This document shows positions 29,392 through 60,717 of a stretch of DNA of 64,000 nucleotides, one piece after another; positions within the stretch are counted from its first letter, which is position 1, and the number at the start of each line of letters is the position of its first letter. Below the pieces are notes generated by a model, which was not told the origin of the DNA, searched no databases, and saw only the letters and a program-made list of their open reading frames with translations. The DNA comes from Alphaproteobacteria bacterium (GTDB taxonomy: Bacteria; Pseudomonadota; Alphaproteobacteria; Bin95): the NCBI GenBank assembly GCA_964291285.2, contig OZ219787.1, forward strand, positions 1,760,001 to 1,824,000, in the 5' to 3' direction. The translations under genes and the position numbers were made by a program.

Positions 29392-29790
29392 GGCGAATGC
29401 TGCGGGAGTTCGTATACGATGTTGTTGTATGACTTTGAGGCCCAGGCATAACGCCAACCTGGAAGGATCATTCCGGCCCGCCCGCCTGCCTTTCGCCGCC
29501 AAGGCCGGATGAAACGGCCGCCGGTGGCACCCGATGGGGCCGCCGCCACCGCTTTCGGCCGAGGTCGACTGCAACAAACGGCCGTTTTCCATCGATGCCG
29601 GGCGTTACGAGCGGTCCCCGTTTCCACCAATGTTGAGTGTTACAACAGCCCTTGTTTATGCCGGAGTCGAATGTAGTGCGGCACCGAACGGCCGCACTTC
29701 TCCCGCGCGCCGGCTCCGGCCGCCGGCCCTCGCGGGAGTGGATTCGTTGCGGCGCCAACGCGGCCGAAGCCGCCAGGCGCCGCCGGTGGT

Positions 29791-29861
29791 TCAGGTCATG
29801 GCCTGTCCTGGCATATTTTCAAGATAAAAGGATATATAGGGAACAAAGGGCGGGACGTCAA
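29791..29861 (-). promoter_or_regulatory. Putative sigma70 promoter followed by an ATG-ACC-TGA minigene
   Basis: Minus strand TTGACG (29861-29856)-N17-TATATA (29838-29833) with GTTC in the spacer; AGGCCATGACCTGA at 29804-29791 is identical to 58638-58651. Confidence 0.55.
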
Positions 29862-30106
29862 CCCCCGCCGATGCGGGGGAGGAGATAGACTTCGGCGCCT
29901 TCGGGGATGGGGGCGGTCAGGTCGTCCTGGTGCATGACGCCGTCTATGGCGACGGCCATGCTTTCCTCCACCTGCCGGCCGAGACCCGGAAAGCGCGTTT
30001 CCAGGTCCCGGACCAGGGCCCTTATGCTGGCTGCGTCCGACTCCAGCTCGGCCATGCCGCCCGTGTATTGACGGCAGGCCGAGTGGGTCAGGACAATGCG
30101 CGCCAA
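29858..30106 (-). CDS. MoaD/ThiS family sulfur-carrier protein
   Basis: 82 aa, RFPGL, VAIDG, C-terminal LPRIGGG. Confidence 0.85.
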   Translation of the reverse strand: MARIVLTHSACRQYTGGMAELESDAASIRALVRDLETRFPGLGRQVEESMAVAIDGVMHQDDLTAPIPEGAEVYLLPRIGGG

Positions 30107-54392: not shown

Positions 54393-54655
54393 GAAGCCGG
54401 AGAGGCGGCATCCGGAGCCGCTTCCTGGGTGCCGCGCGGCCGGCGGCGCCAGTTTCGAAAAACCCCTGAGAAACCCACGGGAGACGTGCGCCCGCCGCAT
54501 CGCGCGCGCAATCAGGTGCGCGAACCGCGCCGGCGCAATCGCGCGCCCCCGCGCCCGCGCGAAACGCGCGCGGCAAAGCGAGAGCCGCTCCCGGGTCGGC
54601 AAGGAGACTGGAATGACCGCAACCGACCCCCGCCCCGGAGACCGCGCCCGAGGTG

Positions 54656-54727
54656 CGGACCATGACAAAACATGACATCCCGCAGCCGGACCATGACAAA
54701 ACATGACACATCATGACATCCCCGCAG
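54656..54727 (+). repeat. Helically phased CATGACA array and 22-bp direct repeat
   Basis: CGGACCATGACAAAACATGACA at 54656 and 54687; CATGACA at 54661, 54671, 54692, 54702, 54712. Confidence 0.9.
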
Positions 54728-56223: not shown

Positions 56224-58254
56224 ATGACACAGCCCGAGCGGGAGACGGCGCTCAGTCGCGAGGCGGGAGAAGCGGTCGAACGGGCCGAGGCATCGGTCAG
56301 CCGCCACCGGGAGCTTGGACCGGTCTGGATGGCCATTCTGGTCACGGCGTCCAGCCTGTCGGTTCTGGCTTCGATTTACTTTATTTTCAACATCCATCTG
56401 ATGATCGATGTCGAAATTTTCGGGGAAGAAACCGAATATTATTACTTTATGTTTGCCATGCTTTTGCCGCTGGTTTTTTTACTTTACCCGCCTTGGAAAG
56501 ATGTCGGACCGATGGACAGGGTCCCATGGTACGACATATTGCTTGCGTTAATCGTGTTCGCCGTTTCGCTCACGTTCGCGGCGCACGGCGAGGAAAACCT
56601 GCTTGAGGGGTGGGAATACGCCGCGCCGGAATGGGCGGTCTACGCCTCCTATTTCATGTGGCTGATGGTGCTGGAAGCCACCCGCAGGGCGGGCGGCATG
56701 CCGATCTTCGTCATCTGCCTCGTCGTCTCGCTCTACCCGGCGCTCGCCGAACATGCGCCCGGCTTCCTCGAAGGCCAGTCCGAGACGCTGGAAGTCACCG
56801 CCAGCTTCCACATGTTCGGCACGGAGAGCGTCATGGGCATCCCCATGCGCGCCTTCGCCTCGCTGGTGGTCGGGTTCCTCATCTTCGGCGTGGCGCTCCA
56901 GTTCACCGGCGGCGGCGCCTTCTTCCTCAACCTCGCCTTCGCCCTGCTCGGGCGCTTCCGCGGCGGGCCGGCCAAGGTGGCGATCTTCTCTTCGGGCCTG
57001 ATGGGCTCGATGAGCGGCTCAGTCATCACCAATGTGCTGACCACGGGCGCGCTCTCGATCCCGGCGATGAAGCGGGTCGGTTTCCGGCCGGCCTATGCGG
57101 GCGGCGTCGAGGCGTGCGCATCGACGGGCGGCGTGCTGATGCCGCCGGTGATGGGCGCCACCGCCTTCATCATGGCGACCTTCCTGGAGATTTCCTACGC
57201 CGTGATCCTGGTGGCGGCGATCATCCCCTCGCTGCTCTACTATTTCAGCCTGTTCATGCAGATCGACGCCTATTCCGCGCGGTTCGGCCTCGAGGGCTTG
57301 CCCAAGTCCGAAATGCCGAAGGCGCGGCAGGTCATGCGCGACGGCTGGCACTTCATCTTCGTGCTGGCGCTGCTGATCGTCATGCTGCTGGTGATGCAGC
57401 AGGAAGCGCAGGCGCCCTATTACGCCGCGGCCCTGCTGATCGTCATCAACCAGGTGCGGGCGCACGACCGCTGGAACCTTGAGCGGTGCAAGCAGTTCCT
57501 GATCGGCATCGCCAAGCTGTTCACGGAGCTTGCGGGCATTCTGGCGGGCGTCGGTCTTATCATCGGTGCGCTGATGCTGACCGGCAAGGTCGGCAACCTG
57601 TCGCTGGAGCTCGTCACCCTCGCCGGCGATTCGATCTTCGTGCTGCTGGTGATGGGCGCGCTGACCAGCTTCATCCTCGGCATGGGGATGACCGTGACCG
57701 CGGCATACCTGTTCCTCGCCATCGCGCTCGCGCCCGCGCTGACCGCCAGCGGACGCCTCGACCTGCTCGCCGTGCACCTCTACATGATGTACTGGGGCAT
57801 GATCTCCTTCATCACGCCGCCCGTCGCGCTCGGCGCCTTTGCGGCCGCGACCGTTGCGCGCGCCAACCCGATCACCACCGGCTTCGAGGCGATGCGGCTC
57901 GGCGCGATCATCTATTTCGTGCCGTTCTTCTTCGTGCTGAACCCGGCGCTGATCGGCCACGGCACGACCGTTGAGGTCATCACCGTCTGCGGGCTTGCCT
58001 TTGCCGGCGTCATCCTGATTTCGGGCGCGCTGCAGGGCTACCTGATCGGCATCGGGACGCTCACCGGCAATCCGTTTGCGGCATGGCCGATCCGCTTCGC
58101 GCTGTTCCTGTCCGGCCTGTTGCTGGCCCTGCCCGGCGGCGAGCTTACCGGCTACACGCACACGCAATTGCTGATTGCCGCTGCAGTCCTGGGAGTCCCC
58201 GCCGCGAGCGCGGCATGGCTGCTGAACCGGCGCGCAGCGGAACAAGCGGCTTAG
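56224..58254 (+). CDS. TRAP transporter 4TM/12TM fused permease
   Basis: LEATRRAGG, RGGPAKVAI.SS, EACASTGG.LMPPVMGATAF, LGMGM, ITPPVAL. Confidence 0.93.
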   Translation: MTQPERETALSREAGEAVERAEASVSRHRELGPVWMAILVTASSLSVLASIYFIFNIHLMIDVEIFGEETEYYYFMFAMLLPLVFLLYPPWKDVGPMDRVPWYDILLALIVFAVSLTFAAHGEENLLEGWEYAAPEWAVYASYFMWLMVLEATRRAGGMPIFVICLVVSLYPALAEHAPGFLEGQSETLEVTASFHMFGTESVMGIPMRAFASLVVGFLIFGVALQFTGGGAFFLNLAFALLGRFRGGPAKVAIFSSGLMGSMSGSVITNVLTTGALSIPAMKRVGFRPAYAGGVEACASTGGVLMPPVMGATAFIMATFLEISYAVILVAAIIPSLLYYFSLFMQIDAYSARFGLEGLPKSEMPKARQVMRDGWHFIFVLALLIVMLLVMQQEAQAPYYAAALLIVINQVRAHDRWNLERCKQFLIGIAKLFTELAGILAGVGLIIGALMLTGKVGNLSLELVTLAGDSIFVLLVMGALTSFILGMGMTVTAAYLFLAIALAPALTASGRLDLLAVHLYMMYWGMISFITPPVALGAFAAATVARANPITTGFEAMRLGAIIYFVPFFFVLNPALIGHGTTVEVITVCGLAFAGVILISGALQGYLIGIGTLTGNPFAAWPIRFALFLSGLLLALPGGELTGYTHTQLLIAAAVLGVPAASAAWLLNRRAAEQAA

Positions 58255-58301
58255 GGCGGAACCCTTTCGGGTTAGAACTGCTTCGTTCGTAGAGCACCAA
58301 C

Positions 58302-58406
58302 CGTCACCCCGGTCGGAGCGCAGCGGAGAGCCGGGGTCCATCTCCCGGTGTTCGCACCAGGCCGAACCGATCGAGGTTGGGCCCCGGCTCGCAGGCCGGG
58401 GCGACG
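58302..58406. repeat. REP/REPIN-like paired palindromes
   Basis: CGTCACCCCGG...CCGGGGTCCA and GGGCCCCGG...CCGGGGCGACG; same family as 59407-59538 and the partial copy at 54266. Confidence 0.75.
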
Positions 58407-58576
58407 AATGAGGTCAAGACCGGATACTACCCGGCAAAGGCGGTCGTTCCAGTTGGAAGGGATCGTGCTCCAGGGCGGTGCCGCGCCTCATACCGGCGCG
58501 CGCAATGCGGGAGTCATGTCCTGGGGGGTGTTCTTTTCCGCCCTCCCCCTGTCTCGGTGTTTTTTCCTGAGTGGGG

Positions 58577-58609
58577 TTGCATTTTTCGCAGTATGTTCTA
58601 TATTGGTTC
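58577..58609 (+). promoter_or_regulatory. Promoter with an alphaproteobacterial LexA (SOS) box
   Basis: TTGCAT (58577-58582)-N16-TATATT (58599-58604); GTTC-tatattg-GTTC at 58595-58609 matches GTTC-N7-GTTC exactly. Confidence 0.7.
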
Positions 58610-58637
58610 CAAACCAACCATTCGAGGGAACCGGAAG

Positions 58638-58651
58638 AGGCCATGACCTGA
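58638..58651 (+). other. Two-codon minigene (Met-Thr-stop) with purine-rich RBS-like upstream sequence
   Basis: GGAAGAGGCC-ATG-ACC-TGA; the 14-mer AGGCCATGACCTGA recurs at 29804-29791 on the minus strand. Confidence 0.4.
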
Positions 58652-58819
58652 CGGTGAAAGCGGCGGTGCCGCTCCTGCAGAAAGCGAACGCGCGGTGGCC
58701 ATGGGGCGGCTGCACAACAGGGCAGGTGCGCGCGCCGGGCCGCGATTATTCATCGGAGTTCGAGTGTTGGCGGGGCCGGACGGCGCAATGTTCATCGCAA
58801 CGGGACGGGGAAGGGAGAC

Positions 58820-59260
58820 ATGAGGGATATGAAGGACATGACGGTGGTGCGCAGGCGAGGCCATGCGGTCGGCGAGCATCTCAGGCGCCGCGCGGTCGCG
58901 GCGGTGCTGGAGAGGGGGATGACCATGCGGGCCGCGGCGCGTCTCTACGAGGTGAGCGACAGCAGCATCTGTGTCTGGGTGCAGCGTTTCCGCGAGCGCG
59001 GCCATGTCCGGCCCGACAGGCAGGGCGGCGGCGGCGGCGTCTCGCGGATCGAGCCGGAGCGGGAGCGGATCTTCCGCATCCTGAAGGCGCGGCCGGCATT
59101 GTCCATCGACGGGCTGCGCAAGGCGCTCGCCGCCGAGGGCGTTACCTTCAGCTGGGCAACGGTGCAGCGCTTCCTGAAGCGCCACGGCCTCGAACGCAAG
59201 AAGCGTCTCGCGGCCGCAAAGCTCGTCCGGGATTCCCGGCCGCGCGGGGGCGGGCGGTAG
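58820..59260 (+). CDS. IS630 orfA-like helix-turn-helix protein without DDE catalytic domain
   Basis: LRRRAVAAV..GMTMRAAARLYEVS.SS...WVQRFRERG..P..QGG...TVQRFLKRHG.ERKK; no downstream transposase frame. Confidence 0.75.
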   Translation: MRDMKDMTVVRRRGHAVGEHLRRRAVAAVLERGMTMRAAARLYEVSDSSICVWVQRFRERGHVRPDRQGGGGGVSRIEPERERIFRILKARPALSIDGLRKALAAEGVTFSWATVQRFLKRHGLERKKRLAAAKLVRDSRPRGGGR

Positions 59261-59305
59261 TGGCGGCGCCCCTCTTTCTTCCTTTCCGCCCGCCCCATCC
59301 CCCTC

Positions 59306-59538
59306 ATCCTGAGTAGCGACCGCGTCAGCGGGCGCGTATCGAAGGGCGGCCCCGTCCGGGACAAGTTCGAGACAGGCTCCTTCGACAGACTCAGGACAGG
59401 TTCTTTCGTCACCCCGGACTTGATCCGGGGTCCAACTCCGGCTCTCTCGGCGGGCACGGGCGGCCCAATCCCGTCTCGAACGGCTAGCGGCGGACGCAGA
59501 CAGTCCGGGATGGCCCCCGGATCAAGTCCGGGGTGACG
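59306..59538. repeat. Cluster of REP-like elements including a perfect 24-bp inverted repeat
   Basis: 59306-59347 matches 7312-7353; CCTTCGACAGACTCAGG; CGTCACCCCGGACTTGATCCGGGG (59407-59430) is the exact reverse complement of 59515-59538. Confidence 0.85.
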
Positions 59539-59665
59539 TTTGAGGCAGGCCGAGGCTGTTTCCCGTCGGACGGGCAACGAAACGCCCGACAAGTCCGATT
59601 TCTTCACACGCCCGCAAGCGGGGGGGGGAGGTTTCCGGCGGCCGGCGGCATCGGGTCCGCCGGTA

Positions 59666-59839
59666 TCAGCCGGATGCGGCGACGAGGCCGACGATGAACC
59701 CGATCACGCCGATGACGGTGATGACGGCTCCGCCGACCCTGGCCTGGAGGCCGTCATCCGCCCCGAATCCGATCCGCATGGCGACGATGCCCAGTATCGC
59801 GACCAGGGCGGACATGACCAGACCGAGTGCGGTGCCCAT
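59666..59839 (-). CDS. Small two-TM membrane protein (57 aa), not in the ORF track
   Basis: AAAGGAA RBS; MGTALGLVMSALVAILGIVAMRIGFGADDGLQARVGGAVITVIGVIGFIVGLVAASG; mostly GC-ending codons. Confidence 0.7.
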   Translation of the reverse strand: MGTALGLVMSALVAILGIVAMRIGFGADDGLQARVGGAVITVIGVIGFIVGLVAASG

Positions 59840-59862
59840 CGGGTGTTCCTTTGCCTTGCGCC

Positions 59863-60717
59863 CTACTGCGCCGACATGCCCCTGAGCCGTTCGGAGCGTC
59901 GCCGCAGCAGTTCGACGGTGGTCAGCAGGCAGATCGAGATGACCACGAGGATGGTCGCGACGGCGAGGATCGTCGGGCTGATCTGCTCGCGCAGGCCGGT
60001 GAACATCTGCCAGGGGAGTGTCTTCTGGCCGGCGGAGCCGACGAACAGCACCACGACCACCTCGTCGAAGGAGGTGATGAAGGCGAAGAGGCCGCCGGAG
60101 ATCACGCCGGGCAGGATCAGCGGCGCCTGCACCTTGAAGAAGGTCCGGACCGGATTGGCGCCGAGATTGGCGGCGGCGCGCGTCAGGCTCCGGTCGAAGC
60201 CGACCAGCGTCGCCGTCACCGTGATGATGACGAACGGGATGCCGAGCGCCGCATGGGCCAGCACGACACCGACATAGGTGCCCTGGAGGCCGATGCGCGA
60301 ATAGAAGAAATACATGCCGGCCGCGGAGATGATGAGCGGCACGATCATCGGCGAGATCAGCACCGCCATGATCGCGCCCCGGAACGGCACATGGCTCTGC
60401 GACAGGCCGATGGCGGCGAGCGTGCCGAGGCTCACCGAAAGCAGGGTCGCGACAGGCGCGATCCGCACGGAATTGTAGAGCGCGTTCTGCCAGTCGATGT
60501 TGGTAAAGAAGTCGTTGTAATTCACCATGCTGTAGGCGTCGGCCTCAAGAGCCAGCATTCCCGGCGTGAAGGTGAAATAGGGAAGCGGGTTGAAGCTGAG
60601 CGGGACGATGACCAGCAGGGGGAAGATCAGGAAGAAGAAGACGAGCACGCAGATGGCCCGGAAGCCCCAGTACCAGGCCTTCTGGCCGGTCGATGCATAT
60701 GGCGGCAGTGCGGCCAT
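59863..60717 (-). CDS. Polyamine-type ABC permease (PotC-like)
   Basis: PLLVIVPLSF, SPMIVP, AAANLGANP, SFDEVV, TLP. Confidence 0.9.
   Translation of the reverse strand: MAALPPYASTGQKAWYWGFRAICVLVFFFLIFPLLVIVPLSFNPLPYFTFTPGMLALEADAYSMVNYNDFFTNIDWQNALYNSVRIAPVATLLSVSLGTLAAIGLSQSHVPFRGAIMAVLISPMIVPLIISAAGMYFFYSRIGLQGTYVGVVLAHAALGIPFVIITVTATLVGFDRSLTRAAANLGANPVRTFFKVQAPLILPGVISGGLFAFITSFDEVVVVLFVGSAGQKTLPWQMFTGLREQISPTILAVATILVVISICLLTTVELLRRRSERLRGMSAQ

Follow-up and report, generated by a model that had tools for sequence, protein, structure and literature searches.

A probably SOS-gated member of a genus-restricted family of dispersed, transposase-like helix-turn-helix genes with a conserved promoter and leader

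Why does a small helix-turn-helix (HTH) gene resembling the N-terminal part of an IS630 transposase stand behind a perfect LexA box in an alphaproteobacterial genome, with repetitive extragenic palindromic (REP) sequences on both sides? The locus lies at positions 58302 to 59538 of a 64,000-nucleotide (nt) stretch of DNA, the window, which corresponds to positions 1,760,001 to 1,824,000 of contig OZ219787.1 in the assembly GCA_964291285.2 of Alphaproteobacteria bacterium (genome G000 in our labels; 6.13 Mb, five contigs, 68% G+C). A sequence-only reading had described it as an SOS-controlled, REP-bracketed cassette with a single gene domesticated from an insertion sequence (IS), and direct reading found every feature that it listed where it had been placed. 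We consider the locus, on balance, probably to be an SOS-gated member of a self-spreading family of transposase-derived, paired-type HTH genes that is restricted to one genus and carries a conserved promoter and leader.

The window gene belongs to a repeated unit with a constant anatomy, all of it on the forward strand. Homology to the closest paralog (C2:990540; 83% amino acid (aa) and 85% DNA identity) is limited to 58556-59245, and the promoter part of the unit (58556-58609) begins with it. At the 5' end of the unit stands a T-run resembling an UP element (58560-58567), followed by a -35 element (TTGCAT, 58577-58582) and, after a 16-nt spacer, a -10 element (TATATT, 58599-58604) that is overlain by the LexA box GTTCTATATTGGTTC (58595-58609). 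The conserved leader, as delimited by iterated nhmmer, runs from 58610 to 58819 and ends where the open reading frame (ORF) starts; it contains a purine-rich stretch similar to a Shine-Dalgarno (SD) sequence (GGAAGAGG, 58633-58640), a mini-ORF that reads ATG ACC TGA (58643-58651), a hairpin (AGCGGC-GGT-GCCGCT, 58659-58673) and the conserved block AACAGGGCAGGTGCGCGCGCC (58716-58736). The intact HTH gene of 146 aa occupies 58820-59260. An 11-bp perfect inverted repeat, identified by direct reading, spans its stop codon (GGGGCGGGCGG at 59247-59257 and CCGCCCGCCCC at 59286-59296). A simple scan of 58250-59700 for sigma-70-like promoters returned 0 sites, being silent at this copy because its -35 element agrees at just three of six positions, and a simple scan of the same interval for terminators also returned 0 sites.

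The 146-aa product is predicted to be a stand-alone, bipartite DNA-binding domain of the paired type, as found at the N-terminus of IS630/Tc1-mariner transposases. In Pfam it matched HTH families alone (HTH_23, HTH_Tnp_1 and HTH_28), and its matches to NCBIfam models of IS630 and IS481 transposases were far under the cut-off and confined to the first ~116 positions; NF033545 aligned at positions 1-116 of 299 and scored 50 bits, half of its cut-off (100). A profile of 46 family members searched against the PDB retrieved the Drosophila Paired domain, Pax proteins, the PAI and RED subdomains of Sleeping Beauty and the DNA-binding domain of SETMAR. The AlphaFold (AF2) model, with a mean pLDDT of 70.5 and values of about 80-85 inside the domains, contains three-helix bundles at residues 17-60 and 77-121, a linker rich in glycine and, at the C-terminus, a basic helix, and its best Foldseek matches were Pax5, Pax6, Prd, SETMAR, Mos1 and Tc3. 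Among PHROGs, only families labelled "transposase" were matched; no PADLOC family was matched, and a role in defence was rejected. A DDE domain is reached neither by the window ORF, which stops at 146 aa, nor by the continuation of any copy in the genome.

The supposed single gene proved to be one of about 43 dispersed units in its own genome. The window protein had 45 matches there, at 38-100% identity, and tblastn gave 43 segments that resolve into 42 distinct frames, 37 of which hold an ATG-start ORF of 125-160 aa. Among the remaining five, three lack an ATG close to where the alignment begins, one is truncated, and one, at a convergent-type locus (C3:2006617-2007111), is a tandem fusion with a 232-aa ORF in which the RED-like part is repeated and a third partial copy follows. 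Iterated nhmmer detected 44 copies of the leader module (~200 nt): 35 precede an HTH gene in the same orientation, four are convergent to one, and five have no HTH gene within 3 kb, although one of these five faces an additional HTH protein match, so that five copies in all are convergent. The module consists of a T-run, a -35/-10 pair, an SD-like stretch, the mini-ORF, variable GC-rich hairpins and the block ACAGGGnAGGTGCGCGCGCC; the promoter pattern (TTGNN...TATAT-type) is present in 36 of 40 leaders. What reads as a strong sigma-70 promoter, the leader and the HTH gene, which encodes ~140 aa, together make up a unit of ~0.7-0.9 kb. Two of the units (C2:1421848-1422454 and C3:2197464-2198070) belong to a sequence that two contigs share with 100% identity for 3.4 kb or more; either the segment was duplicated recently or the assembly contains it twice. 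Tandem repeats were also seen between leader and HTH start: at one locus on contig C1 of G000 (L006:1364-1447), a 28-nt repeat that includes a GCCGCG-TCGG-CGCGGC hairpin stands in three tandem copies between the leader and the ribosome-binding site, and different tandem repeats occupy the same place in other copies.

The units vary in presence at orthologous sites. The window site is occupied in G000 and in its closest relative (G002) and lacks the unit in four other relatives; the genes flanking it are 30-50 nt apart in G005, G007 and G011, and ~280 nt of REP-like sequence lie between them in G006. The apparent orthologs of ~80-85% identity in G005, G006 and G011 are located at the site of the paralog C2:990540, with its upstream flank, which makes the window copy a duplicate that arose later from that lineage. 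At a second site (L006), the unit is missing in five of five relatives. A third site (L007) is filled in G011 and empty in G014 (18-nt gap), G012 (50-nt gap) and G015 (212 nt of other sequence), while G006 (L092, C141:81480-81620) retains the leader and ~28 nt from the start of the HTH gene and has lost the remainder in a deletion bounded by short similar words. In the reverse comparison, both flanks could be paired in G000 for seven of 49 loci of relatives, and at five of these seven loci, representing four G000 sites, the gap in G000 was far shorter than that in the relative. One ortholog set is syntenic across four species.

The left junction of the window copy was matched without a single difference over 57900-58741 by a public-run contig of 4236 nt, found in two runs. 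Public contigs from four runs, which may share a sample with the genome assembly, were compared over 57900-60000; they otherwise ended at the repeated parts of this interval. A low-depth contig (depth 2) from another organism connects 58268 to 59371, and no conclusion was drawn from it.

The REP sequences on either side are separate elements outside the repeated unit. On the left, a REP-like hairpin pair (58302-58406) has arms at 58328-58340 and 58378-58390 that are 92% complementary, and its core GTCACCCCGG occurs 91 times in the genome. The cluster on the right (59302-59538) combines a second repeat type (CCTCATCCTGAGTAGCG...CGTATCGAAGGG, 59302-59347), whose core has 34 genome copies, with a REPIN-like inverted doublet whose 41-nt arms (59407-59447 and 59498-59538) are 85% complementary; the other cores of this flank occur in 26-28 copies. 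With cores in 26-91 copies, these are genuine genome-wide repeats, and they lie outside the homology shared with the closest paralog. The segment 59267-59642 is missing at the same site in G002. The second repeat type often follows directly after the stop codons of units (right flanks of L002, L032, L034 and L036) and inserts independently, because G007 lacks it at that place. REP-type repeats often abut units but differ between copies and between orthologous sites, and the description of the locus as a REP-bracketed cassette does not hold.

No terminal inverted repeats were found end to end in the four units checked. The genome also contains resident IS630 elements, among them a split type of ~14 copies and a type of 367 aa, with active-looking copies and 32 DDE_3 matches. 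They form a separate set without the family leader, and their orfA copies are not among the tblastn matches of the family. The ends of the two resident types resemble no sequence within the units or close to them, and mobilisation by them was rejected on this ground. The sequence-only reading had seen neither a DDE frame nor IS ends, and the searches of ORFs, copies, ends and relatives agree with it.

Imperfect direct repeats of 14-18 nt flank three insertions. At the window copy, the left repeat of 18 nt (TTCTTTTCCGCCCTCCCC, 58531-58548, forward strand) is 89% identical to the right copy at 59279-59296, and the motif TTTCCGCCC.CCCC occurs at these two places only in the 6.1-Mb genome; the repeats measure about 14 nt at L006 and about 17 nt at L041. 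They are a lead only, the insertions being old. Two further observations call for caution: the right window copy coincides with the 3' arm of the stop-codon inverted repeat, and a similar C/T-rich motif is found upstream of other copies. The junctions are old and overlaid by REPs, and imperfect repeats of 14-18 nt are seen where IS630 would give a TA target duplication. The orientation of genes around the units was also considered: by a crude GC-periodicity call, 12 of 37 classifiable units lie at convergent gene pairs, as do 68 of 400 control points. A preference for such pairs was not relied on, since this call mis-assigned the window's own downstream gene.

Among the genomes searched, the unit is confined to one genus. 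In the same genus, 14 of 16 other species contain 2-42 matches and two contain none; outside it, matches were found in five of 24 genomes, all weak and with 1-3 each. Of 60 loci examined in relatives, 51 also have a leader at E <= 1e-8. Among 401 genomes sampled across the class, two showed the two-block leader pattern, our genome with five matches and the other with a single one that looks like chance. The word-indexed search of proteins gave 295 relatives with lengths of 80-256 aa; the 120 of them that were listed measure 115-221 aa, and the few with names go under HTH protein, transposase or hypothetical. A relative with HTH and DDE fused was not detected; one longer relative among 8000 candidates had no DDE Pfam match, which the search tool itself grades as weak evidence. 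Viral contigs yielded no relative, and 72,556 plasmids gave one distant match, an IS630 transposase on a Bradyrhizobium plasmid with 39% identity. Spread by phages or plasmids was rejected on these two results. The public relatives found are all metagenome-assembled "Alphaproteobacteria bacterium" genomes, the only form in which this lineage is known, and annotation has missed the family beyond "helix-turn-helix protein" or "transposase". The listings and abstract openings returned by a full-text literature search showed no paper on such a family.

The HTH genes are under constraint yet fast-evolving, and some copies die. The ratio of nonsynonymous to synonymous substitution rates (dN/dS) of the window gene was 0.17 against its same-site ortholog in G002, 0.36, 0.50 and 0.52 against three other relatives and 0.67 against the closest paralog; these values cover five relatives, a sixth sequence intended for the calculation being a pseudogene with in-frame stops. 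The family protein alignment has 25 invariant columns and a mean column identity of 60%. Together with the 37 of 42 frames that remain intact, these values support the earlier statement that the gene is not a decaying one.

The consensus operator over the -10 element of the window copy and of its clade points to control by LexA. Alphaproteobacterial LexA is described in the part of PMC3091678 that we consulted as recognizing GTTC-N7-GTTC. The genome's own lexA carries GAACCAATATAGAAC 72 nt upstream of its start, which is the reverse complement of the window box and thus the same 15-mer, and the recA box differs by one mismatch. Genome-wide, there are 111 GTTC-N7-GTTC sites, about the number expected from base composition by our own estimate. 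An exact box with an A/T-rich spacer occurs 20 times, 11 of them in family promoters, and the others include one each at lexA (C3:1242688), an S24 peptidase gene (C1:992432) and an SRAP gene (C5:435961), which appear to outline the core SOS regulon of this genome. The reading of the window motif as a LexA box is strengthened accordingly by its identity with the lexA operator.

The same does not extend to the family as a whole. Among 40 leaders of our genome, the box is exact in 10, has one mismatch in 10 and two or more in 20; among 39 leaders of relatives, the corresponding numbers are 7, 11 and 21. Because about half of the family has no box, SOS control would be a trait of a clade and not of the family. 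In a FastTree tree of 42 proteins, midpoint-rooted and read without inspecting support values, at most one box mismatch was seen in 20 of 26 copies of one clade and in 0 of 16 outside it. Within the narrower clade of the window copy, the box is exact in five of seven members, one of the five with a changed spacer. The sequence-only reading had suggested checking homologs lacking orfB for a dN/dS below 1 and a conserved upstream SOS box; dN/dS lay at 0.17-0.67 in the five comparisons with the window gene, and in our genome the boxes with at most one mismatch all fall in one clade. SOS control is therefore well supported, as far as operator sequences can tell, for the window copy and as a trait of one large subfamily.

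From these observations, the following working model can be proposed. LexA would repress the window copy, and DNA damage would release this repression. The leader, through its mini-ORF and hairpin, may set the share of the transcript that reaches or translates the HTH gene. The HTH protein would bind DNA, most likely sequences common to the units, and the copies may thereby cross-regulate one another or mark units for copying, with the catalytic step of spreading supplied in trans by another enzyme.

Several observations weigh against this model. For its mobile part, neither a mover nor defined ends of the units were found, no recent copies (>95% identical) were detected, and no pair at different sites above ~90% identity was seen; for lack of these, "self-spreading" rests on old insertions. 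The paralog dN/dS is high (0.36-0.67). For its SOS part, the box is missing in the roughly half of the family counted above, it overlaps a -10 element that would be conserved in any case, in copies that share descent, and it has been lost at individual loci. The same-site ortholog in G002 (L009 / L031, C47:1-740; 95% aa identity) has a replaced promoter that differs upstream of 58625, with two box mismatches and different REPs on both sides, which suggests an exchange between paralogs at the 5' end, and the box of the G006 ortholog was removed by a deletion. For the leader, the five copies convergent to a gene fit poorly with a plain 5' untranslated region; the SD-like stretch of the window copy is only 2 nt from the ATG of the mini-ORF, which is short for initiation, and the tandem form ATCTGG-ACCTGA suggests a nucleotide motif rather than a peptide.

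A mini-ORF of 2-4 codons is kept in 73 of 79 leaders, as MT* in 47, MTW* in 11, MIWT* in five, MI* in two and as eight single variants of 2-4 codons; the remaining six comprise one longer frame and five leaders without the motif. ACC, ACT and ACG are all seen as threonine codons, and mini-ORFs in which TGA has become TGG regain a stop within one or two codons. The sequence ATGACCTGAC occurs 20 times in the genome, 17 times in family leaders. A leader peptide or a longer coding frame was rejected, because the conserved blocks stand in differing frames relative to the HTH gene between copies. About 8 nt after the mini-ORF follows a hairpin whose pairing is kept through G-C/C-G swaps between subfamilies; 71.3% of its cells pair, a share that 0 of 500 shuffles attained (63.4 +/- 2.2), and slid partners gave 26-67%. 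This lends modest support to one local conserved structure. A group II intron 5' end, a dif-like site and a hammerhead (by eye, from GUGCG/CUGA motifs) were considered as well and dropped, since no other defining part and no Rfam match accompanied them.

Convergent copies and leaders without a gene suggest that the module may act on its own. One such orphan lies in the window itself at 29616-29866 on the reverse strand (nhmmer E = 6e-20; no HTH gene within 3 kb). It carries the mini-ORF ATG ACC TGA; its neighbours are a small MoaD/ThiS-like ORF, which it directly follows, and an acyl-CoA dehydrogenase-like ORF, towards which it points, and the repeats behind it resemble those preceding the HTH gene at C3:1174310. 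Promoter and leader could accordingly be a small-RNA gene in their own right, LexA-gated in one clade, that forms a two-part module of RNA and protein with the HTH gene; RNA binding would fall to the arginine-rich tail or the HTH domains of the protein, and RNA and protein together would guide copying or regulation. We regard this as unlikely. It would account for the four leaders convergent to an HTH gene and the fifth facing an HTH match, for one convergent locus whose gene has a separate promoter, with a hairpin between leader and gene, and for the persistence of leaders without a gene, both at the window orphan and after the deletion in G006. Near-invariant short blocks alternating with variable hairpins, the pairing excess of the hairpin behind the mini-ORF and the basic C-terminal tail of the protein also fit it. 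However, from MAFFT alignments of 40 and of 32 leaders RNAalifold predicted 0 pairs, no column pair exceeded 0.2 when pair probabilities were averaged on profile columns, and the folds of leader subfamilies differ among themselves. The window leader folds no better than its shuffles (z = 0.85), Rfam matches in 58200-59700 were at chance level only, the simple scan of 58250-59700 found no terminator-like site, and the paired-type HTH binds DNA in every solved relative.

A bolder form of this idea takes the promoter-leader as a stand-alone small RNA, LexA-gated in one clade, which together with the HTH protein would constitute a two-part self-propagating element without a catalytic protein of its own; triggered by DNA damage, it would insert intergenically through a host enzyme and leave target duplications of unusual length (14-18 bp). 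We consider this quite unlikely.

Equally doubtful is an ordinary, lineage-specific expansion of transcription factors that benefit the host and were duplicated by general recombination, for example between REPs. Old, diverged copies with intact ORFs and conserved promoters would be expected from it, as would an ortholog set that is syntenic across four species, and the REP-type repeats that often abut units could have served such recombination. Against this, copies share only the ~0.7-kb unit and never flanks or REPs, and the empty sites of relatives are short, contiguous intergenic spacers. Congeners range from 0 to 45 copies, and three insertions have short flanking direct repeats.

The proposal that had been made from the sequence alone, a single host-domesticated HTH gene under SOS control that shields or represses IS630 or MITE (miniature inverted-repeat transposable element) ends, or binds a CATGAC array, upon damage, is improbable. 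Some of its premises were borne out, in that the LexA box is genuine by sequence, the protein resembles the DNA-binding domain of IS630/Tc1-type transposases and active-looking IS630 copies reside in the genome. Yet there are about 43 copies and not one, four relatives lack the unit at this site, the family is missing altogether from two congeners, and pseudogenes and deletions occur among the copies; the resident IS630 elements, moreover, share neither orfA matches nor ends with the units.

That the copies are neutrally evolving, decaying IS630 relics is very improbable: the nearest named relatives are IS630 transposases (one of them the Bradyrhizobium plasmid protein), NF033545 matches the N-terminal part and a few copies are broken, but 37 of 42 ORFs are full-size at 38-83% mutual identity, with invariant residues and dN/dS below 1, the conserved promoter and leader are absent from resident IS630 copies, no DDE remnant follows any copy, and no fused HTH-DDE relative was found.

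We therefore return to the SOS-gated member of a self-spreading HTH family as our preferred account of the locus. As for its immediate surroundings, the window copy lies between a TRAP permease gene and a convergent gene for a small membrane protein. Elsewhere in the window, at 54650-54715, five CATGACA words, mostly 10 nt apart, form two near-identical blocks (ACCATGACAAAACATGACA...); this is the "CATGAC array" of the sequence-only reading.

If this account is true, a DNA-binding domain with a promoter and a leader can reach ~40 copies intact without a transposase, terminal repeats or a visible parent, which raises the concrete question of how such units get copied. The closest structural parallels are the PAI and RED subdomains of IS630/Tc1-mariner transposases and the OrfA of split IS630 elements, which, like the family protein as predicted, consist of two three-helix HTH subdomains joined by a flexible linker; the likeness appears both in the profile and fold matches (Sleeping Beauty PAI/RED, SETMAR, Mos1, Tc3 and Pax) and in NF033545 positions 1-116. 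In contrast to IS630, the units have no DDE domain, frameshift site, orfB or terminal inverted repeats, they possess a conserved promoter and leader of their own, and the nearest annotated IS630 transposase in the plasmid set is only 39% identical.

DNA-binding-only derivatives of transposons are known as repressors that still spread, such as the OrfA/InsA-type inhibitors of insertion sequences and the KP repressors of P elements. These keep the ends of their parents and are moved by the full-length transposase. The family resembles them in consisting of the DNA-binding domain of a transposase alone, in being multicopy and in its variable presence between relatives. It differs from them in that neither a parent element nor shared ends nor terminal repeats could be detected for it.

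IS110-family elements offer another comparison, since they carry a 5' non-coding bridge RNA. In them, a conserved non-coding module with its own promoter stands beside the only gene, terminal inverted repeats are absent and the surroundings are rich in REPs, all of which is also true of the family unit. The family protein, however, is a 146-aa HTH protein without a recombinase domain, and no conserved RNA fold was found. The logic of the small-RNA alternative thus resembles that of RNA-carrying insertion sequences, but without a catalytic protein. On the preferred account, the two-codon ORF and the hairpin that follows it are a compact and testable candidate for a new type of leader control.

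MITEs and REP/REPIN sequences are, like the units, small, dispersed, intergenic and polymorphic for insertion. Unlike these, the unit codes for a conserved protein and brings a promoter with it, and unlike MITEs it has no terminal inverted repeats that match an autonomous partner.

Finally, the window copy has the GTTC-N7-GTTC direct repeat over its -10 element in common with the alphaproteobacterial LexA regulon, as the consensus is given in the consulted part of PMC3091678. In contrast to the genes of that regulon, a multicopy family here supplies 11 of the 20 best boxes in the genome, and its product has no repair, mutagenesis or division function. If the preferred account is true, more than half of the best LexA operators of this genome belong to one selfish-looking gene family, and the SOS response would release some twenty paralogous DNA-binding proteins together.

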